DNA of 64,000 bases from Candidatus Marinacidobacterium sp. (GCA_965204755.1 OZ242011.1:1824001-1888000); one strand, 5' to 3'. Shown: positions 8,478-44,118, numbered from the stretch's first letter. The notes: a model not told the origin generated them from the sequence alone. Translations and numbers: made by a program.

Positions 8478-9041
8478 ATGAGACCCGACGACCGCGAACG
8501 CCTGCTCGAAGTCCTGCGCCGCCGTTCGGTGCGCTTCGGCAAGTTCACGCTGACTTCCGGCGGCACGAGCGATGTCTATGTGGATGTGCGCCTGACCACC
8601 CTCTCCTCCGAAGGCGCCGGCCGCATCGGCCGCGTGCTCCTCGACGCGATGGACCGCGCCGGCCTCTCCCCGGGCGCCGTCGGGGGAATGGAGTCCGGCG
8701 CGATCGCCCTCGCCTCCGCCACCGCGATCGCCGCCGCCGAACGGGGACGAACCATCGAAGGCTTCTTCGTCCGCAAGACCCCCCGCGAACACGGACGAAG
8801 GAAACGCATCGAAGGCCTCGAAAACCCCGCCGGAACCGCCGTCGTCCTCGAAGACACCGCCACCACCGGCGCCTCCACCCTCACCGCGGTGGAAGCCGCC
8901 CGGGAAGCCGGCTTCGAAGTCATCGGCGCCGTCGCCCTGGTGGACCGCGAAACCGGCGCCCGCGAAAACCTCGCCGCCGCCGGCGTAACCCTCCACTCCG
9001 TCTTCACCCTAACCGACCTCACTACGGCCGCCCGCCACTGA
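8478..9041 (+). CDS. pyrE: Orotate phosphoribosyltransferase
   Basis: FTLTSG..SDVYVD, VRK, PRPP-binding VVLEDTATTGAS. Confidence 0.95.
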   Translation: MRPDDRERLLEVLRRRSVRFGKFTLTSGGTSDVYVDVRLTTLSSEGAGRIGRVLLDAMDRAGLSPGAVGGMESGAIALASATAIAAAERGRTIEGFFVRKTPREHGRRKRIEGLENPAGTAVVLEDTATTGASTLTAVEAAREAGFEVIGAVALVDRETGARENLAAAGVTLHSVFTLTDLTTAARH

Positions 9042-9215
9042 CCTTCGACCGTCGGAGTAGGAGTGAGCCGCTTCGTTGGCTACCGTTTCAGCGTCATTCG
9101 GTTACGGTACCGGTCGCCGACCGGGAAACCCAACAAGCAACCGTAGCGGCTACGAAGTCTCAGCAGGCGACGGCCTTGCCGCGAGAACGACTTGATCTTC
9201 GTTCGTAGTAACCCG

Positions 9216-9824
9216 CTACTCTGAACTCGGGCCGCGGAGACGCTGCCACAGTGCGCAGTACTGCGCCAAGTTCTCGGGCAGTAGATCCCGGTGACGTGGG
9301 ACTGCCTCGATGACCTCGTTCATCTCGGGAGGCAGGACCACCTCTCCCATCTTCTCGGGAGCATGTATCTCTTCCACGGTTTGGCGCCCACCCTTCACAA
9401 TTCTCCGTGGAACATCATCGCGGCCTCCGATTTCCACGATCATCGCGGGGCGTTGGTTCACGATGTCCGCCGCCTTGGCGTCGTTAGACGTGTCGTAGTG
9501 CCAGTCTCCGGTGATCCGTGCGAGCCAAAACTTCAGATCCTCCGTCTTCGTCCAGACGAGATCGCCGATTCGGACTTTCCCCTTCCAACGATCCACATTC
9601 CCCTTGGGGTCATATCGCTCGTGTTCTTTGCGGCGCTCATCGCGGCGCGTGCGATAGTCGTCCCAAGTCAGGAACTCGCCTTCCGTGGCTTCCACTCGCC
9701 ATCCCATCCCAAGGACGGATCGCTCGCGGCAGAAGTCCTGTGCCCACCGTGCCTTCTGTTCGCGTGTCTTCGGTTCCTGTGCTGTTCCACCTGTGGGACG
9801 AAGGTTCAACCACCAAATGTGCAT
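9216..9824 (-). CDS. Hypothetical protein resembling the N-terminal DNA-reading domain of Mrr/McrB-like proteins
   Basis: LGMGW...IGDLVW...LARITGDWHY pattern; RBS GAGGAG; lower GC. Confidence 0.55.
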   Translation of the reverse strand: MHIWWLNLRPTGGTAQEPKTREQKARWAQDFCRERSVLGMGWRVEATEGEFLTWDDYRTRRDERRKEHERYDPKGNVDRWKGKVRIGDLVWTKTEDLKFWLARITGDWHYDTSNDAKAADIVNQRPAMIVEIGGRDDVPRRIVKGGRQTVEEIHAPEKMGEVVLPPEMNEVIEAVPRHRDLLPENLAQYCALWQRLRGPSSE

Positions 9825-22982: not shown

Positions 22983-23221
22983 CGGTGCGAGCCGCGGGGC
23001 CTCCCCGGGCTCCGGCCTCCCGCGCGGTAACCGCCGGGGGGCGATGGGCCTTCGCTACGGAAACCGCGCTTCCTTCCCCGTCCCGGAAAGCGGGAACGGC
23101 CGACGACGAGGCCAACGCCTTTCCGGAAGCGCCGACCTCGGACCTCGTGGCGCGCACGATCGCACTCTGGAGAAATCGGGATCGCTACGGGACCGCCGAT
23201 TCTCGGGCGCACCGAGACACC

Positions 23222-23629
23222 ATGGGCGAGGGACAGCATTCCTCGCCCCGAACCCCGATCTTCCCTCTCCGGGCGCCCAGCCCGCTCCCCCTTTCGCAGG
23301 TCTCGCTCTATCCTCTTCAGGAGTGGGAAGGATTCGTCACGGAGGTCCATAAGGATTCCTTCGGCGTCCGTCTGCTCAACCTTACTGCGGGCGACCCATA
23401 TCCCCGAGAGACTGCGAAGATCCCGTTGGAGGAGATCTCTGGGGCGGACGCGGCCAGGATGGGGGCCGGGAGCATCTTCCGCTGGGTCATCGGTTACCGC
23501 CGCAACCTGTCCGGAACGAAAGAACGAACCTCCACGATCGTCTTTCGGACTCTACCCGGGGTTACGGAATCTCAACTCCGCGAAGCCGAGGCTTGGGCGC
23601 GTGACATTCAGAAGATCTTCTCGGACTAA
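23222..23629 (+). CDS. Hypothetical protein
   Basis: Globular-looking QEWEGFV...FRWVIGY segment; start uncertain (frame open from 22985). Confidence 0.55.
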   Translation: MGEGQHSSPRTPIFPLRAPSPLPLSQVSLYPLQEWEGFVTEVHKDSFGVRLLNLTAGDPYPRETAKIPLEEISGADAARMGAGSIFRWVIGYRRNLSGTKERTSTIVFRTLPGVTESQLREAEAWARDIQKIFSD

Positions 23630-23699
23630 CCGGCCGCGCCGCTCGCGGAGCGACTGATCGACCCGGTTTCCCCCGTCCCGGAGACAACGACTCAGATCC

Positions 23700-24440
23700 G
23701 TGCGCTTCCTTCTTCTCCAAGTCCGGGCGCCGGGCGACCCGATGGCCGCGGAGGAGCAGTCGGCCTTCCGTCGCGCCCTGGGCGTCGCGCCGGATGCGGT
23801 CCGCCCCTTCGACCTGCTCTCCGGTGCCCCTTCGCCGCGGGAGTTCGCTGACGCCGACGCCGTCCTGATCGGCGGCAGCGGCGACTACTCGGTCGTGCGC
23901 GGCGGCGCCTGGCTCCCCGCCGCGCTCTCGGCGATGGAGACCCTGTTCGAAACCGCGAAGCCCACCTTCGCCTCCTGCTGGGGCTTCCAGGCGCTCGCCC
24001 GCGCCCTCGGCGGCCGCGTCGTCACCGACCACGCCCGCGCCGAAGTCGGCGTCCTCCCGCTCCACCTGACCGAAGCCGGCCTCCGCGACCCGGTGTTCGG
24101 CCCCATCGGCACCCCGTTCCACGCGGTCATCGGCCACGAAGACATCGTGGACGAACTCCCCCCCGGCGCGGTCTCGCTGGCGTCGAGCGACAACCTCCCG
24201 AACGAAGCCTTCACTTTCCCGGACAAACCGATCTACGCCACCCAGTTCCACCCCGAACTCGTCCGCGAAGACCTGGTCCGCCGCCTCGCCGCCTACCCCC
24301 CCTACCTGACCCTCGCCGGCGCCTCCAGCCTCGACGACTTCCGCGCCGCCAACCCCGAAACCGCCGACACCGCGTCCCTGCTGCGCCGTTTCGCGGCGGG
24401 AACCCGAACCCGGAGAGCCCCGCCCGCCAACCCTCGATAA
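23700..24440 (+). CDS. Class I glutamine amidotransferase
   Basis: GGSG, SCWGFQ catalytic Cys, QFHPE. Confidence 0.9.
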   Translation: MRFLLLQVRAPGDPMAAEEQSAFRRALGVAPDAVRPFDLLSGAPSPREFADADAVLIGGSGDYSVVRGGAWLPAALSAMETLFETAKPTFASCWGFQALARALGGRVVTDHARAEVGVLPLHLTEAGLRDPVFGPIGTPFHAVIGHEDIVDELPPGAVSLASSDNLPNEAFTFPDKPIYATQFHPELVREDLVRRLAAYPPYLTLAGASSLDDFRAANPETADTASLLRRFAAGTRTRRAPPANPR

Positions 24441-24528
24441 GACCGGTCGCCCGGATTCCGAGCACCTGAGTCCGGGCCCGGTCGGCGGCCGTTCGGGATT
24501 GGCGCCGGGGCGCCGGCTCGAAGACATA

Positions 24529-24560
24529 CGACGAAATTTGTCGCTCTCTTGATCTATCGT
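24529..24560 (+). promoter_or_regulatory. WYL/DriD-type box plus -10 (copy 1)
   Basis: CGAC gaaattt GTCG, N11, TATCGT. Confidence 0.7.
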
Positions 24561-24642
24561 TCCCGCCGCCGCCGGAAAGGGGGGTCGAGGTCGGCCCGTT
24601 GGGGGCTCTCCAGACGCTCCGAAGAGCGGCGAGGAAACGCCT

Positions 24643-24789
24643 ATGCGATACTGCCCTACAATGAACATCGTGCGGCTCGGCACCCGACTCCGGAGTGCGC
24701 CGCGCAGAACGACGAAAGAAGATATCCAGAGCGAGGCCGGCGCTTCCCGGCGGTCGAGCGGACGGAGAAGGGAGATGCCGTCGACATGA
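24643..24789 (+). CDS. 48-aa leader ORF homologous to the WYL N-terminal HTH region
   Basis: MRYCPTMNIVRLGTRLRSAPRRTTKEDIQSEAGASRR vs WYL start; stop overlaps the next ATG (ATGA). Confidence 0.55.
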   Translation: MRYCPTMNIVRLGTRLRSAPRRTTKEDIQSEAGASRRSSGRRREMPST

Positions 24790-25859
24790 GTACAACCGAT
24801 TCGTCGCCGCGGGAGAGCGGCCAGCGTTCGGCGACATCTGCCCCGGAGCGGGTGTCCGGACCGCAGACCGGCAGGAAACGGTCTTCCCTTCCAGTTTCCA
24901 CTTTTCGCGTCGCCGTTGCGATGTCGTTCGTGATCTACTGGATTTGGGGCGTCCTCACCTATCCGTTTTTCGACACCTTCGCCGACGATTTTCCGTTCGC
25001 GGACCGCGGCCCCGAGAGTCTCGCGTCTTCGGCGGTCGTGGTTGTGTTGTTCGCGGCCGTTGCCGTCGTGGGTTGGCTGAAGAACCGCGCGGAGTTTCGC
25101 CGCGCCGTCAAGGCCGTCGAGCAAGATCCGACATCCCGCATCTCGCCGCGAATACACCGGTTCCTCGAGAGGATAGATCCGACCTTCGCCCAACGGAAGG
25201 ACGGATGGAGTCGTCGCGCAGCCGAGTTCGTCGATGAAGATCTGGAGTCTCCCGACTCATTGCGAGAAGCAGTAAGCCAGTATTTCGCCAAGATCGCCCC
25301 GACGATGGCCTTTCTAACGTCGTCGAAGAAGAGGAAGATCGTCCGGCTTCGTGGCGCCATCGAGAGACTCCCCGAGTCAGTGCGAAGAAACGAAGCTCGC
25401 GAGTGGATGGCCCCGACTCGCAGCGCCTTCGAGATATTGTTTCTCGTCTTCATGCCGACTTATCTGGTCGTCAATGTGGCCGAGTGGATGGCCGGTCGAC
25501 CTTACTGGGGAGGGATCCGATTCGAGGCCTTCTTCGCATCGTTAGCCGTGACCTTCGTGTCGATCGTCATAGCGACTATCGTTCGTGTGCAACGAACGCG
25601 GAAGGACTTCGGCGAGTCGCTGGAGGGCGCATCCACCGTAGGCCTGTCAGGTCTCGCGATCGCGGAGGTGGTCGTCAATGGCCCGAGAAGCGTGGCGCAT
25701 TTCCTCGGCATGTGGTTGGCCCGCTTTTTCCTGCTTCTGAGAGTACGCAAGTGGACCACTACGATCGTGTTCGTTGGCACCCTGCTTCTTCTCTCACGAG
25801 CCTTCGTCGCTCTGTACTGCGTCATGCCTTGGACTTCACCCTGCACCACACTATTCTGA
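24786..25859 (+). CDS. Multi-pass membrane protein (paralog A)
   Basis: About 5-6 hydrophobic segments; shares KRKIVRLR, APTR and ASTVG with 33060-34043. Confidence 0.75.
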   Translation: MSTTDSSPRESGQRSATSAPERVSGPQTGRKRSSLPVSTFRVAVAMSFVIYWIWGVLTYPFFDTFADDFPFADRGPESLASSAVVVVLFAAVAVVGWLKNRAEFRRAVKAVEQDPTSRISPRIHRFLERIDPTFAQRKDGWSRRAAEFVDEDLESPDSLREAVSQYFAKIAPTMAFLTSSKKRKIVRLRGAIERLPESVRRNEAREWMAPTRSAFEILFLVFMPTYLVVNVAEWMAGRPYWGGIRFEAFFASLAVTFVSIVIATIVRVQRTRKDFGESLEGASTVGLSGLAIAEVVVNGPRSVAHFLGMWLARFFLLLRVRKWTTTIVFVGTLLLLSRAFVALYCVMPWTSPCTTLF

Positions 25860-25941
25860 ATTCTGAAGAAGCGCCCGCCGATGTCGTTGCCTTCGGGGCT
25901 CGTGCGAAGGAAGTGACGGATGTCGCCGGAGGTCGGACCAT

Positions 25942-27567
25942 TCACATGCCCCAGATGCGAATCGTCAGGGCCGCGCCCTCGGTCGGCGGCGAGTCCGGCG
26001 TGACCTCCCAAGTCCGCGGCGCCTCCGGGTCGGCCGTCCTCCGCACGGAGAGGGCTCGCTCGAAGATCCTCTCTTCCCAGGTCTTGTTCCCGGCGTCGTC
26101 GATCACGACGAGGTGACCCTCCTCGGCGTCGCAGCGGTCGAGATACCGCGCCGTCTGCGCCGCGCCCTCGCGGATGACCGTCTCGAGCGCGTCGTGTTCC
26201 CGGCGCACCTTGCACTCCACGACGAACCGCTGGAGCCGGTCGGACGCGCGCCATTCGATCAGCAGGTCGCTCCGACCCATTCCGAGGGCGTACTCCCGGA
26301 CGATTCGTCCCCCGGCGTTGACGATCCGCTGGAGGAACGCCTGCAGCAGCACCTGCACCGCCGCCTCCCGGAAAGAGAACCCCTGCGCCCACCACTCGGA
26401 GTGTTCGCGGAAGAACCCCTGGAACGCCGTCAGCAGTTTCGGGACATCCAGACTGCGGTCTGCGCGAAGGAACGGTGTGTTGTCCGCGCTGAGGCGCGGT
26501 TCCGCCGCCACCGACAGGAGTCGGGGCACGACTTCGCGGTATATCGGGTTCGCGATTTCGACTTCCCCGTTCGCCTTGGTCAGGCCGAGCGCCCGCACAT
26601 AGGCCAAGTCGGTCCGGTCCGTCGAGAGGAACCGGGCGCGGCCGGCGAGGATGGGTTCGATCACCCGACGCACGCGCGGTTCCTTCAGTCGGTCGGCGAA
26701 GTGCCGCAGGAGGATCGGGCTGTAGAGGATCAGTCGGTCCCGTGCGGCTGCCACGGCATCCCTCTCGATGGTCCGCGACCGATCCCGGCCGGCCTCGTTC
26801 TCGAAGCAGACATCTCTCGCCAGCGCGTTCACCAGCCACGGTTGGCCGGCGGTCGCGTCCCAGATCTCTTGGACAGCATCCGGAGCGAATCCCTGTCCGG
26901 TCTCCTGCGTGTGCTGACCAAAAAGCCCCTCGACTTCGCCTCGTGAGAAGTCCGGCAGCCGCAGCGACTCCGACACGATGTTGAACGAACCGGCGTCTCC
27001 CAGCGGATAGTCCCGCAGGTCCCGGAGGCCGCAGAGGACCACGCAGCGAGGGAAACGGCGCGGGCGGCGCGCGAAACGGGCGCGCAACTGGCTGAGCAGC
27101 GCGAACAGCGTGTCCGCGTCCAGGCCGTCCACTTCGTCGAGCAGCAGCACGAGGCGCTCACCGCCCGTCGTCTGCGCCCACCGCGCGAGCGACGCTCCGA
27201 TCGCATCCGCCGGGCCGCGCTTGTCGAGTTCTCCCGGCCAGATGCCATCCAGCGAATCGTCATCGAGACACGCGACAGCGGCCTCGCCGATCGCGCTCAA
27301 GACGCCGCGGACGGCCGCCTCCCGGCCTCCGCCCACCCTTCGCGCCGACTCGACGCTGGCGTACAGGGAGCGCCAACCCTCCGCAGCGAGGCGCTCCCGG
27401 AGCGCGCCGAGGACGGAGGTCTTGCCGGTCTGCCGGGGCGCGTGGAGGACGAAGTACGCGCGGCCTTCCACCAAGTCGAGGATCCGCGGGAGGTCCAGCC
27501 GGCCCAGCGGGGACACGGCGTAGTGGACTTCCGGGTCCACCGGCCCCGCCACGCTGAAACGCCGCAT
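25942..27567 (-). CDS. AAA-like ATPase with C-terminal PD-(D/E)XK-like domain
   Basis: HAPRQTGKT, LLLDEVD, GQPWLVN, GRSDLLI...VVECK. Confidence 0.85.
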   Translation of the reverse strand: MRRFSVAGPVDPEVHYAVSPLGRLDLPRILDLVEGRAYFVLHAPRQTGKTSVLGALRERLAAEGWRSLYASVESARRVGGGREAAVRGVLSAIGEAAVACLDDDSLDGIWPGELDKRGPADAIGASLARWAQTTGGERLVLLLDEVDGLDADTLFALLSQLRARFARRPRRFPRCVVLCGLRDLRDYPLGDAGSFNIVSESLRLPDFSRGEVEGLFGQHTQETGQGFAPDAVQEIWDATAGQPWLVNALARDVCFENEAGRDRSRTIERDAVAAARDRLILYSPILLRHFADRLKEPRVRRVIEPILAGRARFLSTDRTDLAYVRALGLTKANGEVEIANPIYREVVPRLLSVAAEPRLSADNTPFLRADRSLDVPKLLTAFQGFFREHSEWWAQGFSFREAAVQVLLQAFLQRIVNAGGRIVREYALGMGRSDLLIEWRASDRLQRFVVECKVRREHDALETVIREGAAQTARYLDRCDAEEGHLVVIDDAGNKTWEERIFERALSVRRTADPEAPRTWEVTPDSPPTEGAALTIRIWGM

Positions 27568-27807
27568 GCGTTGAGTATGGCCGGACCGCCGAGGAGGCGC
27601 GGGTTGCCGGAACGGCTCCGCCGCCCAGCCCGGCCCTGACCGCCCGGGCGCCCGGCCTCGCCGGGATCGAGACCCGAATTCGGCCTCGTGGGGCCCGCTC
27701 ACCGTCAATTTTCCGTCGTTCAACGGAGAACCCAGCGCGCCCGACCCCCGGCGGGCGAAATTCGGCGCCCTACCGAACCGAGCCCGCCGGAGGTCTCACC
27801 GAACACC

Positions 27808-30687
27808 ATGCACGAATACGACCGCGCCGCCGTTCGCGGCTACCTGTTGAACGCCGTCCGCGTCGCGCTGCGGAACCGCAAGGCCGCGGCGCGGCTGGCC
27901 GACTGGGTTCGCTCCAACCGCGGCGAACTGGACGAGGAGGGGATCGCGGACCTCTACGCCGTCTGCGAGACCCGCGAAGAACCCGACTCCGACCCGAACG
28001 GCTACCGAGGAATGGTTCGCGGCGGGTTCGAGTCGCCGCGCCGGGCGACCGATCGGGACCTCGCCTTCCTCTCCGAGGTCGCCGCCGCCCTCGCCGAGAC
28101 ACCGATCCTCACGCCCGGAGACGAACTCTTCTCGCGAAGCCCCACCGCTCGAGCAGCGCACCTGTTCGCGTCCCGGCTCGGATTCGACGGCGTTTCGGCT
28201 GCCGTGATCCACCTGGGTCATCTCCACGAAGAATCGGGAGTCGTCCAGAGTCTTTGGGACAACATCCACGAAAGCCGCAAGGACCCCGTCGCAACGACCG
28301 CGCTCCTGCTCGGCGCCGGTACGAAACCGGTGGACCACGCGCTGCTCGCGCTGCTCGAGGCCGGCATCTTCCGTCGCGATCGCTGGAATTCGTCGTCACT
28401 CGTCAGCAGTGTCACCGGCGGCATCGAGTCGATCTGGCAACCGCCGGTCGAGAACGACCGCCAACTCGTCGAACGCCTGCTCACGGGCCCCACCGAGCCG
28501 TCACTGGCGCTCGACCAGTTCTCCCACCTGCCGGACCGCGACGAAGCCGTCGCCCTCCTGGCCGGCGCCCTTCGGGACGCGGCCCCGGGAGTGAACCTCC
28601 TCCTGCACGGCCGCCCCGGGACCGGCAAGACCGAATTCGCCAAGACCCTGGCGGCCGCGGCGGGCGGTTGCCTCTACTCCATCGGCGAACCCGTGCCCGA
28701 CTCCGCTTCCTGGAAGCGTGACGGCGACCGGTGCCCCGAACTGCGCCGCGCCGACCTTCTCCTGAAGACGGAGCGGAAAGCGGTACTGCTCTGCGACGAA
28801 TCGGACGATGTCTTCGCCCCGCAGAGGCACGAAGAATCTCGCGATCGCCTCTTCCGGCTCCGGCTCCTCGAAGAGAACCGGACGCCCACGATCTACACGG
28901 CGAACCGAATCGACACCCTCGACGAGGCCGTGCTGCGCCGCTTCACGATCGCGCTGCGCTTCACCGCCCTCTCCCCGCGCCGGCGGACGACGATGTTTCG
29001 CCGAATGCTCGAAGAATCGAAACTTCCCGAACTGGAGGCCGCCGAAGCAAACCCGGAACTCGCAAATCGCCTGTCGGTCGAACTCGAAGCCCCGCCCGGA
29101 GTCGTGGAACGGGCGATCCTCGCCACCCGACTCACCGGAGGCGGAAAAGCCGCCCTGTTCCGCCACGCGGAGCGCCTAGAACGCACGATCTCCGGCGTAC
29201 GCGCGATCCCCCGGCTGGGCGCCCCCGTCCGGCCGAAGCACCCGTGGGCCGCTTTCTCCCACCTCGGCGCGGACGCCGAAGATGCCCGGCGCTCGCTGGC
29301 CGCCGCCGTCTTCGGAGAGCGCGGCGAAACGCCCGAAGAACCGCGCAAGGGAGTGAACTTCCTCTTCTACGGCCCTCCCGGCACCGGCAAAACGGAGTTC
29401 GCCGCGACGCTCTGCGCCGAGATCGGCGCCTGCCTCTATTCCGTCGGTCAGCGGGAGTTCGGCCCCGACGCTCGCGTAGCGGCCGACCGCTGGGAGTGTC
29501 TCGAATACGCGCTGGAATCGCTCGCCGACGAACCGGGCGCGGTAATCCTCTTCGACGAGATGGAGGACCTCCCGGGTATGCCGAAACACTGGATGAACCG
29601 CGTCCTCGAAGAGAACCGGACGCCGATCCTCTGGGCCTGCAACGCGACGGACTACTACCGAGCGTGCGAACCCTTCTTCCTCGACCGGATGCTCCTCTCC
29701 GTGGAATTCCGCTCGCTGCCCCCGCCCGCGAAACGGGAAATCTACGAAGGAATCGTCTTGAAGCGCGGCGTCGCGGACGAGACCTCCGCGGCGCTCGCCG
29801 ACGAGTTCTCCCGGATGCCCGATGTGACCCCGCGCCAGGTAACTCTCGCTTCCGCCTGGCCGGCGGTGGAAGACGGCGACGCCGACGGCATCCGCCGCAA
29901 CCTCGACCGGAAGCGCCGCCTGCGCCGCGGCGCCCCGCCGGCGTCACTCCCGAAGCCGGCCCTCTACGACCCGAAACTCCTCCGCGCCGACTGCGACCTC
30001 CTCGAACTTGCCGACCGGATCGTCCGCTGCGGCCCCCGTCGAATGGGGCTCCTCTTCTCCGGCCCGCCCGGAACCGGGAAGACCGAGTTCGTCCGCCACC
30101 TGGCGAAGCGCTGGGATCGGGAGATCCTGCCGCGCCGCGCTTCGGACCTGCTCGACCGGTATGTCGGGGAGAGCGAGAAGAACATCGCCCGCGCCTTCGC
30201 CGAGGCCCGCGACCTGGACGCGATCCTCGTGCTCGACGAAGCGGACTCGCTGCTGGCCGACCGGCGCGCGGCGCAACACCGCTGGGAACTCGGCCAGGTG
30301 AACGAACTGCTCGGCCAGATGGAGGCGCACCCGCTGCCGTTCGCCTGCACCACGAACTTCGCTGACGCGCTCGATCCGGCTGCCGCGCGGCGCTTCCTGT
30401 TCCGCGCCGAGTTCCGCTGTCTCGACCGCGCCGGCATCGCCCGGGCCTTCCGCCTGTTCTTCGAAGCGGACGCGCCGCCGGAAGCGCTCGCCCTCGAAGG
30501 TCTCACTCCCGCCGACTTCGCGAATGCCCGCGAACGCGCCATCGTCCTCGGCTTCCGGGACGAGCCCGCTCGCATCGTCGAGGACTTGCGCCGCGAGGGC
30601 CGAGCCAAGGGCGGGCCGGAGAGGCCGATCGGGTTCGCTTCCGCCACTTCCGGTCGGCGGTCGCTCCCCGTGACCCCGCCGGCGTGA
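27808..30687 (+). CDS. AAA+ ATPase with three tandem ATPase modules
   Basis: HGRPGTGKT/LCDE, YGPPGTGKT/LFDE, SGPPGTGKT/VLDEAD; RBS GGAGGT. Confidence 0.88.
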   Translation: MHEYDRAAVRGYLLNAVRVALRNRKAAARLADWVRSNRGELDEEGIADLYAVCETREEPDSDPNGYRGMVRGGFESPRRATDRDLAFLSEVAAALAETPILTPGDELFSRSPTARAAHLFASRLGFDGVSAAVIHLGHLHEESGVVQSLWDNIHESRKDPVATTALLLGAGTKPVDHALLALLEAGIFRRDRWNSSSLVSSVTGGIESIWQPPVENDRQLVERLLTGPTEPSLALDQFSHLPDRDEAVALLAGALRDAAPGVNLLLHGRPGTGKTEFAKTLAAAAGGCLYSIGEPVPDSASWKRDGDRCPELRRADLLLKTERKAVLLCDESDDVFAPQRHEESRDRLFRLRLLEENRTPTIYTANRIDTLDEAVLRRFTIALRFTALSPRRRTTMFRRMLEESKLPELEAAEANPELANRLSVELEAPPGVVERAILATRLTGGGKAALFRHAERLERTISGVRAIPRLGAPVRPKHPWAAFSHLGADAEDARRSLAAAVFGERGETPEEPRKGVNFLFYGPPGTGKTEFAATLCAEIGACLYSVGQREFGPDARVAADRWECLEYALESLADEPGAVILFDEMEDLPGMPKHWMNRVLEENRTPILWACNATDYYRACEPFFLDRMLLSVEFRSLPPPAKREIYEGIVLKRGVADETSAALADEFSRMPDVTPRQVTLASAWPAVEDGDADGIRRNLDRKRRLRRGAPPASLPKPALYDPKLLRADCDLLELADRIVRCGPRRMGLLFSGPPGTGKTEFVRHLAKRWDREILPRRASDLLDRYVGESEKNIARAFAEARDLDAILVLDEADSLLADRRAAQHRWELGQVNELLGQMEAHPLPFACTTNFADALDPAAARRFLFRAEFRCLDRAGIARAFRLFFEADAPPEALALEGLTPADFANARERAIVLGFRDEPARIVEDLRREGRAKGGPERPIGFASATSGRRSLPVTPPA

Positions 30688-30722
30688 CCGAAACCACTTT
30701 CCTCGAATGAGCGCCCGAACCG

Positions 30723-30754
30723 CGACCGCTTCTGACGCAGCGACGGTGCAGGAT
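30723..30754 (+). promoter_or_regulatory. WYL/DriD-type box plus -10 (copy 2)
   Basis: CGAC cgcttct GACG, N11, CAGGAT. Confidence 0.5.
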
Positions 30755-30981
30755 TCGGGATGACGCGCCGCTCGGGAACGCCGCAACGCGATCGTGGCAA
30801 GCCCGCAACGGACGACCGATACCGATGCCATACGCCATAGACCGGTCGCGGCGAATCGCCGGGATCCGCCGACGAGAACGCCAACACGACCGCAGAAGAC
30901 GACCCCGATGAACGAATCCGCCCCCGCCGAACGGGGACACCCATTCCCTCCGTCACCGAATTACCGCCGAGGACGACTTCC

Positions 30982-31980
30982 ATGAACCACACCGACATCG
31001 CCACCGAACTGCCCGCCCCCGCCGCTCCGTCTCCGCGCGCGGCCGCCGATCCGCGCGACCGCTGCTTTTCCACGGGAAGAACCTACGGGCGGCGGCTCGA
31101 CTCCGGATGCCCGGACTGCGAACACCTTCCCGCTCCCGGCGCACGCGCCGGCGATACACCCCGGGTGATTCCGGCCTGCTCCACCTGTTTCCCGGCCGAT
31201 ACGGAACGAAGCGACTACGAATTCACCTTCGAGACTCCCGCCTTCGGCGACTGGATGGAGCGGGATATGGAGAGGGCGTGCCTCCGCTGCGGCGAGCGCG
31301 ACAATCCTCCCTACGGCGTCCTCCGCTGGCGCGGCCGCGCCGCCCCGCCGCGCTGCGACTGCGAGTTGCGCTGGACGGCCGCCGCCACCGCGTGGACGAG
31401 CGCCGCCGGGCTCCTCGTCCTCCCCCGCGGCGCCGCCGTCCCGACCGGCGACGGCCCGCAGGGCGGCCCCGTTCCGGTCCGCGTCTCGCTCTGGAAACGC
31501 GCCGAATACCGAGCCGCCTCCGCCCTCTTCCCCGACCCGGACACCGCCCGGCTCGCGGCGGTCACCGTGGATGCCGAAGGCGCGGTCCTCGAAGTCCGCG
31601 AAGCCGCCTTCCCGGAGAGTCTCGGCGACAGCGCCGAACCCACGCTCGCCGCGCCCGGCCCGATCCTCACCGTCGCCGCCATCCGTCCCGACCGCGCCGA
31701 GGCGCGAAAGGCGGCCCACCACCGCCTCGCCATCGCGCGAAGGCGCGCCCCGCAGCGCCTCGACCTGGACTTCCCGCTGGACCTCCCGCTCGTCGCGCCC
31801 GACCACGAGTTCTCCGACCGAGGCCCCGCCCTCCGTTTCGAGAACTGGCCCGCCGCGCTCGCCGGCGACTGGACGGCGTATTCCGCCACGCGCTTCGACG
31901 ACTCCCGGCTCCTGACCGCGGAACGCCCCGGCCGCCACACCTGCGCGGCGTGCGTCCCGGCCCCGAAGGAGTCGCCATAG
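30982..31980 (+). CDS. Hypothetical Cys-rich (putative multi-zinc-ribbon) protein
   Basis: CPDC, CSTC, CLRC, CDC, CAAC; RBS GAGGA. Confidence 0.65.
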   Translation: MNHTDIATELPAPAAPSPRAAADPRDRCFSTGRTYGRRLDSGCPDCEHLPAPGARAGDTPRVIPACSTCFPADTERSDYEFTFETPAFGDWMERDMERACLRCGERDNPPYGVLRWRGRAAPPRCDCELRWTAAATAWTSAAGLLVLPRGAAVPTGDGPQGGPVPVRVSLWKRAEYRAASALFPDPDTARLAAVTVDAEGAVLEVREAAFPESLGDSAEPTLAAPGPILTVAAIRPDRAEARKAAHHRLAIARRRAPQRLDLDFPLDLPLVAPDHEFSDRGPALRFENWPAALAGDWTAYSATRFDDSRLLTAERPGRHTCAACVPAPKESP

Positions 31981-32072
31981 CGCGCCTTCCTTCCCGCCAG
32001 CCGTCCCCGCCGAACGGTCCACGACCGAGACGAGAATTCGAAGAAAACGCCACAAGAGGAGGCCAAAACACG

Positions 32073-32402
32073 ATGTGGAAGACCATCACCAAGACCATCC
32101 GCAATCTCCTGCTCAACGCCCTCGCCATACCGAGTATTCTGCTTGGTGTGATCTGCTTGATTACTTGGCTGACAGTGATTGTCGTAGTAACCGGCACTTG
32201 GATAATTTCGGTTGTCGCATTGACCGGCGCGATCCTCATCGTTGCGTCGCCGCCCGGTTTCCTGCTCGCCATGGCCGTGGCGTACGAAAAGGGACGCAAG
32301 GAACGCAAGAAGCGCAAGCGCAAGGCCGAGAAGAAGCGTCGCACCGCTCGGGCTCTGCCCATCAGTCCGGACTACGCCGCGGCGGACGGCGAACACCAAT
32401 GA
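32073..32402 (+). CDS. Small membrane protein with basic tail
   Basis: MWKTITKTIRNLLL start after GAGGAGG; long hydrophobic stretch, KRKRK tail. Confidence 0.7.
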   Translation: MWKTITKTIRNLLLNALAIPSILLGVICLITWLTVIVVVTGTWIISVVALTGAILIVASPPGFLLAMAVAYEKGRKERKKRKRKAEKKRRTARALPISPDYAAADGEHQ

Positions 32403-32475
32403 GCGGGCAGGCCGGACATCCGCGACTGTCCCTCGACCAGCGAGTCGCAGCACGACCATCGAAACGAGGTGCATC

Positions 32476-32745
32476 TTGGACCTGATCGGCCTCATACTGG
32501 GATGGTTCTTCTTGGGTTTCCTCGACGAGAACTATCCCAGATTCTTCAAATGGGTCTTTCTTCCTCTGGCTCTCTGGGTCTCTATTGCCCTTGTTGTCAG
32601 TTGTGTTGATGACTTGCTACACCACGATGCCGTAGAGAGTGTTGATTGCGGCAACCCGGATGTCCGATGTATCAACGGGCCCCACTCGGTTGACTGCAGC
32701 GCCCCGGCGATCCGGTGCATCAACACTGACGGCGACCTACCGTGA
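32476..32745 (+). CDS. Small membrane protein with two SVDCxxPxxRCIN repeats
   Basis: TTG after GAGGT; two hydrophobic segments; Cys-containing repeat. Confidence 0.6.
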   Translation: MDLIGLILGWFFLGFLDENYPRFFKWVFLPLALWVSIALVVSCVDDLLHHDAVESVDCGNPDVRCINGPHSVDCSAPAIRCINTDGDLP

Positions 32746-32802
32746 CCTCGACCACGGAGAGTCGCGTCCGAACGGAGTCTCGATGGCGGATTGGAAGACA
32801 TA

Positions 32803-32834
32803 CGACGGAATCTGTCGCCCTGTCGATCTATCGT
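32803..32834 (+). promoter_or_regulatory. WYL/DriD-type box plus -10 (copy 3)
   Basis: CGAC ggaatct GTCG, N11, TATCGT. Confidence 0.7.
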
Positions 32835-32916
32835 TCCCTTGCCGCCGGACGATGTGTGTCGAAATCGGCCGGTCGAGGGCCGGTCGGACGCTCCGACGGG
32901 CGGTGAGGAAACGAAC

Positions 32917-33063
32917 ATGCGGTATCGCTCTACGAAGAACATCGTGCGACTCGCCACCGAAGTCGGGTGTGTCCGGCACGGGATGACCAACGAGGATATC
33001 TGGAGTGAAGCCGCCGGCTTTCGGCGGCCGAGCGGACGGAGAAGGGAGACGCCTTCGACATGA
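32917..33063 (+). CDS. 48-aa leader ORF homologous to the WYL N-terminal HTH region
   Basis: MRYRSTKNIVRLATEV...; ATGA overlap with 33060. Confidence 0.55.
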   Translation: MRYRSTKNIVRLATEVGCVRHGMTNEDIWSEAAGFRRPSGRRRETPST

Positions 33064-34043
33064 GTACGCCGGATTCTCTGCCGCCGGAGAAGGCCCGGCC
33101 TTCCGCGGCCTCCGCTCCGGAAAAAGGTTTTCCGAGCGACGAGGCTCGAGCACTCGCGATGTCGCGGAGATGGTGGGTCTGCTTCGCGCTGTCCTTCGAG
33201 ATCTGGTGGGTCGGATTCGTCGCGCTCCACCCCTTCTACCCTTTCGTGGACACCGCCTTGACGCGGGCGGCGTGGGCCGCGGTTCCGGTTGCCTTGGTCG
33301 CGGCCCGTGCGGTCTTGGTGTGGGTGAGCCTTTACGAGACCATGCGTACTCTCGTGCGTGCTCTCGCTGAGAGCAAGCTGGCCGAGTCCGGTGCAGTGCA
33401 CCATTTTTGGCTTCTCATCCCGGGATTCCTCCTTGGCGGAGCGTTCTCGAAGCGCAAGATCGTGCGGCTGCGCCGCGCGGTCAAGCGAGTTCCCCGCTCA
33501 GCGCGAAAGCACCAGTTCCGTACATGGAGGGCTCCGACGCGAAACGCACTGTGGGCCTGGGGACTGATCTTCTATCCGGCTTGGTTCGTGATCGGTGCGG
33601 TGCAGGCTGTAATCGGCCGAGATCATGTGACAGGAGTCCTCGAGATATTCGGTGCGTCGGTCGGTGTGGCGGTCATGGTCGTGGCCGCGCGGACGATCGT
33701 TCTCGTGCGGCGTGCGCGGAGGAAGTTCCGCGGCTCTCTGAACGACGCATCCACCGTAGGCGTGGCGGGCCTCGTGGTCGCGGAAGTCGTCGGCAACGCG
33801 CCGAGAAGGGTCGGCCGACGGCTGACCCGCCGCTATGTGCGGTATCTGACCTCGTTCTGGCGCACGAGGCTGCTGAATTTCTTGGCCCTTCTCTTTCTCG
33901 CAGCGATCATCCTCGCTTGGTTCGACTTCACGACACTGCTGAACCACCTCTCCCGGTTGTCTCCCGGTCTCGCGGTCCTCCTCATCTGGAGGCATCGAAA
34001 GGCCCGGAAGAAGGGCGCGGGGCGCACGAGAAAAAAGGATTGA
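33060..34043 (+). CDS. Multi-pass membrane protein (paralog B)
   Basis: Hydrophobic segments; homology to 24786-25859. Confidence 0.75.
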   Translation: MSTPDSLPPEKARPSAASAPEKGFPSDEARALAMSRRWWVCFALSFEIWWVGFVALHPFYPFVDTALTRAAWAAVPVALVAARAVLVWVSLYETMRTLVRALAESKLAESGAVHHFWLLIPGFLLGGAFSKRKIVRLRRAVKRVPRSARKHQFRTWRAPTRNALWAWGLIFYPAWFVIGAVQAVIGRDHVTGVLEIFGASVGVAVMVVAARTIVLVRRARRKFRGSLNDASTVGVAGLVVAEVVGNAPRRVGRRLTRRYVRYLTSFWRTRLLNFLALLFLAAIILAWFDFTTLLNHLSRLSPGLAVLLIWRHRKARKKGAGRTRKKD

Positions 34044-34215
34044 GGGTCGCTTCCTCGCGCGCGGAGGACGGCAGCCGTCGTCCGGCTTTCGGGCGGGGGC
34101 TCTCCGCCCCTCGTACCGAGCCGACCGCCCGACAGCGCTGCCCCTCCCCGGCCGCGGTCCGTAGCGCCCCGCTCGGCGGCGCTCCGGTTCGCCCCGTCGG
34201 CCCCTCCAAAATCTA

Positions 34216-34247
34216 CGACACATTTTGTCGCATACCCCGTCTAAGGT
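34216..34247 (+). promoter_or_regulatory. WYL/DriD-type box plus -10 (copy 4, upstream of the WYL gene)
   Basis: CGAC acatttt GTCG, N11, TAAGGT. Confidence 0.72.
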
Positions 34248-34329
34248 TCCCCCTGCCGCCGGAAGAGGGCGTCGAGGCCGGCCCGTCGGGGGTCGGTCGG
34301 GCGTTCCGACGGGCGGCGAGGAGACGCAA

Positions 34330-35319
34330 TTGCGATACGGCCCCACGAAGAATGTCGTTCGGCTCGCCGTCAAACTGCAGGGCGCGCCGCGCGGGCTGAC
34401 CATGGAAGAGATCCAGCGCGAAGTCGGCGGCTCCCGGCGGACGGCGGAGCGGATGAAGAACGCCGTCGAGGAGTGCTTCGACACCCTCCACGCGGTGGAG
34501 AGCGACGACCGGAAGACGCACTGGCGCCTGGAGTCGCGGGCGCTCCGCGGATTAATCCGGATCACCCCGGAAGAATTGGCCGAGATGTCGCCGATGACCG
34601 AAGCCCTGGAACGGGCCGGGCACACCGAGCGCGCCGCCGCCGCGCGGGCGCTCGCCGACAAACTGCGGGCGCTCCTGCCCTGCCGCCCCGAGCCCGGCGA
34701 GCCGGACGAAGACCTCGAAGCGCTGCTCCGCTCCGAGGGGCTGGCCATGCGGGCCGGCCCCCGCCCGCGGCTGGAGCCGGGCCTGCTCCCCCTCCTCCGC
34801 GAGGCGATCCTCACGCGGCGGGTCGTCGAGTTCGACTACCGGGCGCCGAACCGAAGCGAGCCGAAGACCTTCTCGGCGCACCCGCACGGCATCCTCTACG
34901 GCGCGCGGCCGCACCTCGTGGCCCGCGCCGACTGGGCGGACGACCTGCGCCTGTGGCGGCTCGACCGCATCCGCCGCGCCCGCGTCACCGACCGGCCGTT
35001 CACCCCGGCCCCGGACTTCGACCTCGAGGACTACGCCCGCCGATCGTTCGGCACCTACCGGGAGCCGCCGGTCCCGGTTGTCCTACGCTTCGCCGCCGCC
35101 GTGGCCGACGACGCGGAAGGGTTCCTCTTCCACCCCGGCCAGACCGTCGAGCGCAACCCCGACGGAACGGTCACGGTCCGCTTCGAGGCCGGCGGCCAAC
35201 AGGAAATGGCCTGGCACCTTTTCACCTGGGGCTCGAGCGTAACCATCGAAGAGCCCCGTTCCCTCCGCGACCGCCTCGCGGGCCTGTGCGCCGAACTCGC
35301 CGCGCACCACGCACCATGA
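34330..35319 (+). CDS. wHTH-WYL-WCX transcriptional regulator, DriD-like
   Basis: GLTMEEI...SRRTAERM HTH resembling DriD; HPHGILYG..HLVA, WRLDRI; WCX-like HPGQ and WHLFTWG; TTG start after GAGGAG. Confidence 0.9.
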   Translation: MRYGPTKNVVRLAVKLQGAPRGLTMEEIQREVGGSRRTAERMKNAVEECFDTLHAVESDDRKTHWRLESRALRGLIRITPEELAEMSPMTEALERAGHTERAAAARALADKLRALLPCRPEPGEPDEDLEALLRSEGLAMRAGPRPRLEPGLLPLLREAILTRRVVEFDYRAPNRSEPKTFSAHPHGILYGARPHLVARADWADDLRLWRLDRIRRARVTDRPFTPAPDFDLEDYARRSFGTYREPPVPVVLRFAAAVADDAEGFLFHPGQTVERNPDGTVTVRFEAGGQQEMAWHLFTWGSSVTIEEPRSLRDRLAGLCAELAAHHAP

Positions 35320-35903
35320 CTCGACCCCTCGACCCCACCACCGCCCCGCCGCCGGCGCCCGGCGCCCCGACGAAATTCGTCGCGCTCGACTTCGAGACCG
35401 CCAATATCTGGCGCGACAGCGCCTGCGCCGTCGGCGTGGTCGTCGTTGAAGACGGCCGCATCACGCACTCCGTCCACCGCCTCATCCGCCCCCCGAAGAG
35501 TTGGTTCTCGTTCACCTGGCTCCACGGGTTGGACTGGAAGAAGGTCCGCGACGCGCCGGCGTTCGACGCCGTGTGGCGCGACCTGGCGCCGCTGTTCGAC
35601 GGAGCGGACTTCGTGGCGGCGCACAACGCCTCGTTCGACCGATCGGTGCTCGCCGCCTGCTGCAGCCGCCACGGGTTGGCCACCCCGCCGCAGCCCTTCG
35701 TCTGCTCGGTGAAGGTCGCCCGCGAAGTCTGGAACTTCTACCCGACGAAACTCTCCGATGTCTGCGCCCGGCTGGACATCCCGCTGAACCACCACGAGGC
35801 CCTTTCCGACGCGAAGGCCTGCGCCCGCATCGTCATCGCGGCCACCGCCACCGGCTGGCGCCCCCGCCTCCCCGGGTCCGCGCCGCCCCCGCCGGAGGCC
35901 TGA
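35316..35903 (+). CDS. DEDDh 3'-5' exonuclease (DnaQ-like)
   Basis: ALDFETA, AHNASFD, HHEALSDA; ATGA-coupled to the WYL gene. Confidence 0.92.
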   Translation: MTRPLDPTTAPPPAPGAPTKFVALDFETANIWRDSACAVGVVVVEDGRITHSVHRLIRPPKSWFSFTWLHGLDWKKVRDAPAFDAVWRDLAPLFDGADFVAAHNASFDRSVLAACCSRHGLATPPQPFVCSVKVAREVWNFYPTKLSDVCARLDIPLNHHEALSDAKACARIVIAATATGWRPRLPGSAPPPPEA

Positions 35904-36248
35904 ACCCCCCGCGCCGCCGGCGGGCCGCAAACGCGCCCACCGGCCGGCGCGTGCGGTCGTCGGCGCTCCCCACTCGCGAGAACGGCGCTCTTGCGGAAGG
36001 CGGGGCCGAGAACCGTCGCTTCCGACCCCCCACCGTCGCGCCGGTTCGCCTCCCGAGCGCTCGGGATTCATGGCCACCGGCGCTCGCCCGACTGCGAGCC
36101 GTCCCTCGCCGGCGTCTTGCGCCCCCTCCCGCAGTTTTCTATAGTCGCGCTCAACGGGATTCCCGCGTCCGTCCGGGCGCGTGGGCGGCGATTCGCGCCG
36201 CCGATTCGTCTCCCCACCTTTCCATCGCAGGAGTTCACCCTCCGGTTC

Positions 36249-36740
36249 ATGACGACCTCTCCGGCGGCGGCGGCACTGCGCAGCCGCACGATGCGGGCGG
36301 TTCGGTCCAAGGACACGGCCCCGGAGATGCGCGTCCGCCGCCTGGCCCACCGCCTCGGGTACCGCTACCGCCTTCACCGGAAAGACCTGCCGGGAAAGCC
36401 CGATCTCGCATTCCCGTCCCGTCGGAAAGTCATCTTCGTCCACGGCTGCTGGTGGCATCAGCATGACTGCGCTCACGGACGCCGCCTCCCGGCTACCCGA
36501 CGGGAGTACTGGCTTCCCAAATTGAGCGGGAACCGGCGCCGCGACCGGGAGAACCGGCGGCGCCTCGAGGCCTCGGGCTGGGAAGTCCTGACCGTCTGGG
36601 AATGCGAGGTGACCGACGACTCCGCGCTGCGCGCGCGGCTTCGGAATTTCCTCGGCGAGACGCTCGCCCCACCCGGAGACCCCGCGCTCCCCCTGACCGC
36701 CGAGACCCGCGACAGTTTTCGTCCGGCCCCCGGGCGATGA
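36249..36740 (+). CDS. vsr: Very short patch repair endonuclease
   Basis: MRAVRSKDTAPE, LPGKPD, FVHGCWWH, VWEC. Confidence 0.95.
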   Translation: MTTSPAAAALRSRTMRAVRSKDTAPEMRVRRLAHRLGYRYRLHRKDLPGKPDLAFPSRRKVIFVHGCWWHQHDCAHGRRLPATRREYWLPKLSGNRRRDRENRRRLEASGWEVLTVWECEVTDDSALRARLRNFLGETLAPPGDPALPLTAETRDSFRPAPGR

Positions 36741-40424: not shown

Positions 40425-40456
40425 CGACCGGAACTGACGCACGGACTCGCAACACT
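40425..40456 (+). promoter_or_regulatory. WYL/DriD-type box plus -10 (copy 5)
   Basis: CGAC cggaact GACG, N11, AACACT. Confidence 0.5.
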
Positions 40457-43511: not shown

Positions 43512-43597
43512 CCCTCCATCCCCGAGCCGAAGCGCCGACCGATACCGGACGGACACCTCGCGGATCGGTTCAGCGGAGCGATCCGTCGCCCCTTCTG

Positions 43598-43629
43598 CGA
43601 CCGGATTCGGCGCAGGTCCGCCCTACCGT
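43598..43629 (+). promoter_or_regulatory. WYL/DriD-type box plus -10 (copy 6)
   Basis: TG-CGAC cggattc GGCG-CA; TACCGT 11 nt after GGCG. Confidence 0.6.
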
Positions 43630-43692: not shown

Positions 43693-43995
43693 ATGACCAC
43701 CGCGCCCACCCGAAGGCGCCGCCGCCGGCCCGCTTCGTTCTTCGTCGGCGCCGCGCTCGCGCTGTCTCTCGGCGCCGCCTGCGCGGGATCCGGCAACCCC
43801 GGCACGGACCTCCTCTTCATGCTCATCGGCGTCGGCGGCGCCATCGGAACCATCATGCTCGCGTCGCGCCGCGGCGTGATGACCACGGGAGTCGTCGTGC
43901 TGACCTTCGTCTTCTGGCCGGCCGCCCTCATCCATGTCCTGACGAAAGAGCGCGATCCAGAGAAGTTGGACATCGGGCCTTCGAGCAGCGACTGA
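43693..43995 (+). CDS. Small membrane protein (paralog 2)
   Basis: LGAAC, LIGVGG, VFWP..IHVLTK; RBS AAGGA. Confidence 0.72.
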   Translation: MTTAPTRRRRRRPASFFVGAALALSLGAACAGSGNPGTDLLFMLIGVGGAIGTIMLASRRGVMTTGVVVLTFVFWPAALIHVLTKERDPEKLDIGPSSSD

Positions 43996-44086
43996 CCCTC
44001 CGCCTCGCGTGCGAAGCCGGGCGGATACGACGATAGCGCGGGGAGGCCGCCGCCCGAATCATCGAATCGATCCGTCGCTCCAAATG

Positions 44087-44118
44087 CGACCGGATCTGGC
44101 GCAACGGCGCCCTAGTCT
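44087..44118 (+). promoter_or_regulatory. WYL/DriD-type box plus -10 (copy 7)
   Basis: TG-CGAC cggatct GGCG-CA; TAGTCT 11 nt after GGCG. Confidence 0.62.

Follow-up and report, generated by a model that had tools for sequence, protein, structure and literature searches.

The 5′ control region of a gene encoding a DriD-like WYL regulator occurs three times in a 64,000-nucleotide (nt) stretch of Candidatus Marinacidobacterium sp. DNA (GCA_965204755.1 OZ242011.1:1824001-1888000; the window, in which positions are counted from the first letter), once in its native place and twice as a copy joined to one of two paralogous membrane-protein genes, termed memA and memB here. The copied cassette is the complete 5′ control region of the regulator gene, comprising operator, -10 hexamer, leader, Shine-Dalgarno sequence, start codon, and about 41-48 codons, and the copied switch probably puts both membrane genes under the regulator's control. 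That the regulator's 5′ region was captured by membrane genes to give an activated circuit of three promoters, with the captured 48-codon stub persisting as a relic, is regarded as reasonably probable. The cassettes and the genes behind them are:

24503-24847, + strand: cassette A (repeat finder and blastn)
32777-33121, + strand: cassette B (repeat finder and blastn)
34190-34470, + strand: cassette C, the native 5′ end of the 329-amino acid (aa) WYL gene
24786..25859, + strand: memA, 357 aa, five hydrophobic segments, unnamed family
33060..34043, + strand: memB, 327 aa, five hydrophobic segments, memA paralogue
34330..35319, + strand: DriD-like WYL regulator gene, 329 aa, TTG start, with helix-turn-helix, WYL, and WCX domains

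The first-pass annotation of the window had reported that about 270 bp of the WYL 5′ region are repeated at 24520-24789 and 32795-33063, and this is borne out by both a repeat finder and blastn. The repeat finder returned direct copies at 24503-24756, 32777-33030, and 34190-34443, with 69-71% identity to the reference copy, and a longer pair of A and B at 24584-24847 and 32858-33121 (74%). A blastn search of the whole genome (3,975,858 nt in one contig; guanine-cytosine (GC) content, 71.7%) at word size 7 detected three cassette copies and no others, and the repeat spans about 260-330 nt per cassette. The pairwise blastn matches are:

A-B: 75.4% identity over 329 nt (E 3e-58)
A-C: 72.7% identity over 260 nt (E 1e-32)
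B-C: 72.3% identity over 235 nt (E 4e-25)

DriD, a WYL protein, activates the SOS-independent response to DNA damage in Caulobacter crescentus. The regulator in the window is, by homology, a full-length counterpart of this protein, aligning over residues 2-323 with the DriD chains 8tp8_A and 9pfq_Q of the PDB (E ~1e-51) and matching the Pfam WYL (4e-15) and WCX (2e-14) models; the PADLOC WYL models that it matches are generic. A sequence search of the PDB at E<=0.01 gave six matches, five of DriD type plus PafC (7e-9), and nothing else. The recognition helix reads SRRTAERM (S35-R36-R37-T38-A-E-R-M) in the regulator and GRRTAERM in DriD; Arg36, Arg37, and Thr38 are thus conserved, and these three residues have been named as DNA contacts of DriD (PMC10853764). 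At other DriD positions, Arg43 is replaced by Lys and Arg8 by Asn. The regulator is encoded by the one WYL gene at the locus, and the sole other full-length paralogue lies 233 kb away. The regulator gene starts with TTG; both captured copies (24643, 32917) start with ATG, as do the copies of a sister species.

Each cassette carries a DriD-type box followed by a -10-like hexamer:

24526..24546, + strand: operator A, DriD-type box, ATACGAC-GAAATTT-GTCGCTC
32800..32820, + strand: operator B, ATACGAC-GGAATCT-GTCGCCC
34213..34233, + strand: operator C, in the regulator's own promoter, CTACGAC-ACATTTT-GTCGCAT
24555..24560, + strand: -10-like hexamer A, TATCGT, 8 nt past box A
32829..32834, + strand: -10-like hexamer B, TATCGT, 8 nt past box B
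34242..34247, + strand: -10-like hexamer C, TAAGGT, 8 nt past box C
24561..24642, + strand: 5′ leader A of about 80 nt, with a GAGGA Shine-Dalgarno sequence at 24632-24636

Boxes A and B are identical at 18 of 21 positions, and TACGAC-N7-GTCGC is kept in all three copies around the AT-rich spacers GAAATTT, GGAATCT, and ACATTTT, in a genome of about 72% GC. The DriD consensus site is given as ATACGAC(X)7GTCGTAT, and an AT-rich spacer was described in the own promoters of 66 of 68 DriD homologues (PMC10853764). The operator core CGAC-N7-GTCG, the spacer, and the presence of a box in the regulator's own promoter are therefore likenesses to DriD, while the right half-site of all three boxes is without the outer TAT of the consensus. 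The box here stands about 95 nt upstream of the start codon, at a position typical of an activator, unlike in alphaproteobacterial driD promoters, where the distance averages about 17 nt (PMC10853764).

The arrangement of a 21-bp box, exactly 8 nt, and TAnnGT recurs in three of three copies. A scan with the sigma-70 consensus found no -35/-10 promoter of sigma-70 type and no -35-like hexamer at any cassette. In DriD-activated promoters, the -35 element is poor, the DriD site occupies its place, and the distance to the -10 element is identical (PMC13004042); the didA and driD promoters printed in the Methods of that paper likewise consist, as read by eye, of a 21-bp box, 8 nt, and CAAGGT or CAATCT. 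The proximal half-site and the -10 hexamer also fit the motif of PafBC, which acts by sigma adaptation in mycobacteria: the PafBC consensus is tGTCgg(N10)tA(N3)T (PMC8635444), and the cassettes read TGTCGC-N10-TATCGT (A and B) and TGTCGC-N10-TAAGGT (C). Since the box geometry matches that of DriD and PafBC promoters and a -35 element is lacking, the cassette promoters are read here as activator-dependent, predicted to be of DriD/PafBC type. The system nevertheless differs from PafBC, which is a heterodimer of two adjacent paralogues, in having a single gene and a full palindromic box, and similarity to PafC is weak (E 7e-9) and confined to the C-terminal half. As for the leader, hairpin predictions gave z scores of -1.4 (A), -2.6, and -3.1 with 1 compensatory pair in 27, insufficient for an RNA element, and Rfam over 23000-36000 gave no match at E<=1.

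The same box position admits a different reading, in which the box is a repressor operator of BrxR/CapW type and the regulator would keep its own gene and both membrane genes silent until released by a signal. Protein bound at the -35 position could stand in the way of polymerase, so a box placed there is compatible with repression, as practised by most WYL regulators of defence islands, and this counts against activation; repressors of the WYL family that sense single-stranded DNA (ssDNA) are also in print (PMC11662680). The setting is that of a defence-type island, with an IetA-like triple AAA protein, Vsr, Dcm, a restriction-enzyme-like gene, and PDC-S01. A WYL regulator inside such an island is a likeness to BrxR and CapW, and equally to DdaA of Moraxellaceae, which is an activator of DNA-damage and defence genes (PMC12392091). 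BrxR and CapW, by contrast, are described as repressors and are encoded next to the defence system under their control. Defence-type genes also lie near the present regulator, while those immediately behind the boxes are the regulator gene and two genes for unnamed membrane proteins. The PDB search described above, the sole sequence comparison made, returned no chain named BrxR, CapW, or DdaA, only proteins of DriD type and PafC. With no -35-like hexamer present and a geometry equal to that of DriD- and PafBC-activated promoters, repression is considered unlikely.

How the cassette came to stand before the membrane genes can be traced in the stubs that it left there:

24643..24789, + strand: stub A, 48 codons, of which codons 1 to about 41 are homologous to the N-terminal helix-turn-helix of the WYL protein; TGA overlaps the memA ATG
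32917..33063, + strand: stub B, 48 codons; TGA overlaps the memB ATG
24764..24789, + strand: junction A, with purine-rich GGAGAAGGGAGA, 10 nt, and ATGA; most conserved A/B segment

Translation and protein comparison confirmed that both stubs encode 48 aa and end in an ATGA stop-start overlap (24786-24789 and 33060-33063) with paralogous membrane-protein open reading frames (ORFs); memA and memB products are 33% identical over 300 aa (E 1e-28). The further idea of the first-pass annotation, that two diverged stubs had each stayed open for exactly 48 aa on their own, does not survive closer comparison. The A/B junction, GGAGAAGGGAGA(T/C)GCC(G/T)TCGACATGAGTAC, is identical at 25 of 27 positions over 24766-24792, A and B are gapped against C at the same alignment columns, and the first ~20 membrane-gene codons are common to both, so that A and B descend from a single fusion. 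Judged by these common features, there was one capture followed by duplication, not two captures, and the length of exactly 48 aa is inherited. Random frames of 48 codons at about 65% GC are free of stops with a probability of ~0.29 (arithmetic from base composition); together with the inherited stop, this makes the 48 open codons weak evidence. Identity between A and B is distributed along the unit as follows:

Box: 86%
Spacer-to-(-10) region: 75%
Leader interior: 64%
Shine-Dalgarno to start: 78%
Stub: 73% (nucleotide identity)
Junction: 93%
First 20 membrane codons: 64%
Membrane-gene bodies: 54% (nucleotide identity)

Tandem duplication is a process that makes chimeric junctions in which the 5′ end of a gene and its promoter are joined to another gene. 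A tandem duplication that began at the membrane gene's start and ended near regulator codon 48 would yield exactly the order found at B-C, which is promoter, stub, membrane gene, promoter, and full regulator, and later duplication of the fused unit would have given rise to the memA and memB units. About 40 nt further upstream are common to A and C (24/36) and absent in B (13-14/36-40). At the junction, the membrane frame GCC GTC GA- has the same codons as Ala-Val-Glu of the regulator; on this ambiguous alignment, the fusion may at first have been in frame, to be split later by small indels. Overlaps of 4 nt between stop and start (ATGA) are a form of translational coupling in operons. The present case differs from other tandem-duplication chimeras and ATGA couplings in that the donor is an autoregulated regulator whose copy carries its own operator and enlarges the regulon, and in that what is left of the donor frame persists as an upstream ORF in both paralogous units.

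By its pattern of substitution, the 48-codon stub looks like a leftover of the regulator frame, a relic rather than a working peptide. Differences between stubs A and B fall on codon positions 1, 2, and 3 in the numbers 9/12/14, and the Nei-Gojobori ratio of non-synonymous to synonymous rates (dN/dS) is 0.51 for A-B, 0.63 for A-C, and 0.67 for B-C. Read in an alternative frame, the A-B stub gives the same value (0.50), and the contrast of synonymous and non-synonymous differences between A and B is not significant (Fisher p=0.08). Given the even spread over codon positions, a dN/dS of about 0.5, and this p value, selection at the peptide level is not seen. The first-pass annotation had allowed for a small inhibitory peptide, and both stubs are indeed open, have a start and a Shine-Dalgarno sequence, and keep helix 1, helix 2, and the first recognition-helix residues (RR), as might a truncated helix-turn-helix with an inhibiting or modulating effect on the regulator. 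The rest of the recognition helix and the wing are missing, however, the last 7-8 residues at the C-terminus are out of frame with the regulator, the two stubs have 58% identity with substitutions spread evenly over codon positions, and the frame is broken around codon 22 in all six long forms of a related lineage. A working small protein can thus be given hardly any credence.

The relatives of memA bear on the same question, their frames being judged from protein sequences. Cluster 1 (82% identical to memA) has nine members, of which five are 405 aa long, one is 407 aa, and three are 312 aa. Its six long forms, all distinct sequences, begin MRYCPTKNIVRLG... or MQYCPTKNIARLG... and match the stub frame for about 21 residues; every one of them then matches the membrane frame up to MSTTD, 48 residues from the start. 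This corresponds to a net change of 1 nt by which the start of the stub and the membrane protein come to share one frame. Because A and B both have the ATGA form and split earlier, this fused form is derived, and it has outlasted substitutions such as R2Q and V10A. Cluster 2 (83%) is called in the membrane frame from far upstream and shows no net indel over the 48 codons, while the 312-aa forms (including P0030) are called from Met46 and are uninformative on the stub. Conservation of residues upstream of Met46 in the distant member P0011 supports the ATG at 24786, over Met46, as the memA start. Stub frame, start, and stop are thus not all conserved across relatives, as six of six long forms of one cluster change frame. 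Disruption of stubs in relatives, named in the first-pass annotation as the first half of what would speak against its idea, is therefore found in one lineage. Every form seen nevertheless keeps, in the predicted frames, a path that is open between the regulator-derived start and the membrane gene.

Such an open path raises the question of whether the stub is required as a leader for translational coupling, with ribosomes loading at the regulator-derived start and restarting at the overlapping ATG, and no membrane protein made by any other way. The ATGA overlap is kept in A and B, the junction is their best-conserved segment (25/27), and ATG and GAGGA are kept in both stubs. From the end of the purine-rich tract to the membrane ATG there are 10 nt, a long spacing. 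The frame change of the related lineage joins stub and membrane ORF without introducing an early stop, and ribosome flow from the regulator's start would be kept in every form seen; the second related cluster is without a net indel across the 48 upstream codons. Stub DNA is also less diverged than neighbouring synonymous sites: third positions of the stub differ at 14/48, against ~0.49 in the membrane genes (binomial p=0.006). This pulls against a pure relic, a term that may overstate the case, and may reflect constraint on stub DNA or RNA, or gene conversion among the copies. The membrane genes, on the other hand, carry their own purine-rich Shine-Dalgarno-like tract, the fused lineage shows the stop-restart step to be dispensable, and open frames are cheap at such GC. 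Pairing of junction RNA across the membrane start is possible in both copies, yet with z scores of -0.53 and -0.45 there is no signal of a structure occluding the junction. A required coupling leader is accordingly a tentative and somewhat unlikely alternative to the relic.

If the cassettes are captured activated promoters, the regulator would bind the same box at its own gene and at both membrane genes. By analogy to DriD and PafBC, it would sense ssDNA arising from DNA damage or phage attack and activate all three promoters, with positive feedback on itself while the two membrane effectors are made. The stub is probably still translated, ends on the membrane ATG, and may help to hand ribosomes on. 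The first-pass annotation held that a regulatory cassette copied from the regulator wires new effectors into its regulon; the copying is upheld, with operator, -10 hexamer, and geometry kept in three copies, and the control itself is what we infer, along with binding, activation as opposed to repression, which signal induces the circuit, by what route the duplication arose, and what the membrane proteins do. Membrane proteins are also among the targets of DriD in Caulobacter. DidA, for instance, is a membrane-bound division inhibitor. This DriD target binds FtsN (PMC10853764). The predicted targets here differ in being proteins of 327-357 aa with five hydrophobic segments and no family name, and the regulon differs in having been enlarged by copying of the regulator's own 5′ end.

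The locus would represent a natural case of regulon growth, in which an autoregulated control region plus a piece of coding sequence brings genes under one signal in one step. It also extends DriD-type WYL regulators, with operator and geometry intact, to an uncultured sponge-associated bacterium, where it is predicted to drive membrane proteins within a defence-type island. If the membrane proteins are growth-arrest or suicide effectors induced by damage or phage, regulator and targets would form a compact sensor-effector pair. A search of the full-text WYL/DriD literature found no description of a regulator 5′ end copied onto effector genes, which is not proof of absence.

Several observations weigh against the reading of a captured, regulator-activated circuit. 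Only three of seven DriD ssDNA-contact residues are kept in the regulator (Y170, R207, W209, also numbered Y168, R204, W206), and S172, R178, Y192, and K202 have altered counterparts, as mapped by hand on the alignment; the ligand may therefore differ from that of DriD. The second WYL paralogue, at genome position 2091371 (34-35% identity), could bind the boxes instead. A relaxed operator pattern is not commoner across the genome than in the reversed genome (14 vs 9; 104 vs 108). With regard to the membrane genes, memA/memB dN/dS is high at 0.78 and near saturation (synonymous difference 0.515, third-position identity 0.51), and their GC content at third codon positions is 0.72-0.76 vs 0.85-0.91 in neighbouring genes. 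The cassette units lie within a variable island, between a glutamine amidotransferase gene (23700-24440) and about 35376, which is covered by metagenome contigs of near-identical strains; in one contig, 8,750 nt long, 24394 is joined to 25946 with unit A left out, and 25048-25795 is not covered by any contig of the same metagenome run, which suggests that unit A was lost or replaced in one strain and that the membrane genes could be dispensable or decaying cargo.

It could also be argued that the copies are decaying debris of island rearrangement, kept similar by gene conversion, and that A and B have no regulatory role. The star-like divergence of the three copies (75/73/72%), the contig that skips unit A, and the high dN/dS of the membrane genes would all fit, as would the situation in a sister species (G001). 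There, the same flanks (85-92% at the protein level) enclose a different, longer island, which holds a truncated regulator orthologue (61% identity over residues 1-117) and, upstream of it, a degenerate box:

8946-9410 within G001:C1:768000-787000: truncated orthologue of the regulator, 154 aa

Comparison of the islands relied on flank synteny alone, as tblastx of the island against the relatives' loci gave mostly GC-driven noise. Against decay, the functional elements are the most conserved parts of the unit (box 86%, Shine-Dalgarno/start 78%, and junction 93%, vs 64% for the leader interior), and the memA frame is intact over its whole length in relatives from three clusters, with identities as low as 82%. 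Debris is thus a very improbable account, and capture of a control region is preferred. The G001 island also contains at least six GCGACCGGATCTGACGCA-type boxes with TAnnnT 8 nt downstream (1033, 1834, 3832, 6965, 14668, 18351). Other contig joints at the locus in the window, 24489-31011 (X8) and 31024-35413 (X11, X13), each with short replacement letters, suggest island variants, possibly of other organisms.

Further boxes of DriD type were sought with a strict pattern (CGNC-N7-GNCG with at least 3 A/T in the spacer, then N11 and TAnnnT), which matches the genome 14 times and the reversed genome 9 times. Of these 14 genome matches, five fall within 24-46.7 kb of the window, all on the + strand, where 0.08 would be expected; this enrichment is indicative only, since the region was picked after the hits were known and three of the five, the cassettes, are mutual copies. 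The remaining two are:

43595..43629, + strand: DriD-type promoter, CTGCGAC-CGGATTC-GGCGCAG + 8 nt + TACCGT, upstream of a 100-aa ORF (43693-43995)
44084..44118, + strand: DriD-type promoter, ATGCGAC-CGGATCT-GGCGCAA + 8 nt + TAGTCT, upstream of an ORF starting at 44185

The two have common upstream sequence, GATCCGTCGC, and by eye the 100-aa ORF resembles a small membrane protein. Weaker boxes, with one mismatch and a poorer -10 hexamer, occur at 30723, upstream of a 332-aa ORF at 30982; at 36710, which precedes the C-5 methylase gene (36840) by about 130 nt; and at 40425, after the PDC-S01 gene.

A fourth perfect palindrome of the TACGAC class lies outside the window, at genome position 1777044 (CGAC-ATCTTTT-GTCGCAT + 8 nt + TACCTT, with a 94-nt leader). 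Behind it is a 63-codon fragment with a weak match to the N-terminus of C-5 methylase (E 0.009), whose TGA overlaps a GTG lying in the reading frame of a DUF4928 ORF. The layout of stub plus overlap is that of the cassettes, with a different donor gene, and alignment of the region to the cassettes found no homology beyond the box. Because of this layout on a methylase fragment and DUF4928, it can be asked whether such 5′ ends are portable expression plugs maintained by selection, with translation of the stub needed and a DriD-like ssDNA sensor driving a set of membrane or exported proteins. This broader proposal is quite doubtful.

The locus is, by its predicted gene content, a defence-type island. 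One of its genes encodes:

27688-30687: 999-aa protein, three AAA modules in tandem with P-loops spaced by 762 and 690 nt

This protein gives a partial match to models of the IetA/IteA anti-phage ATPase, well below the NCBIfam cut-off. Other neighbours in the window are a 593-aa AAA/PD-(D/E)XK-like protein, Vsr, a C-5 methylase (Dcm), a restriction-enzyme-like ORF, and a PDC-S01 protein.

The membrane proteins themselves, whose hydrophobic segments were counted in a 19-residue hydropathy scan, have no match in Pfam, NCBIfam, or PADLOC. The memA family is tiny, with 6 matches among 5.8 billion clustered proteins and, in a profile search of 1.84 billion representatives, again 6 matches, five of them strong (E<=1e-30). 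Among 41 genomes including the source, the only match to memA outside the source has E 0.003 and an internal stop. Searches of genome and metagenome contig collections with memA, its alignment, and the 21-base cassette pattern found no related locus, and the best score in the ESM Atlas, 0.80, is under the lead threshold. An AlphaFold2 model of memA from 15 sequences is too poor for use (mean predicted local distance difference test 47.6, predicted template modelling score 0.27). Just upstream of cassette B, at 32078-32745, two ORFs of ~108 and 81 aa without a family match resemble small membrane proteins, and they lie within the stretch of lowest GC in the island (0.62).

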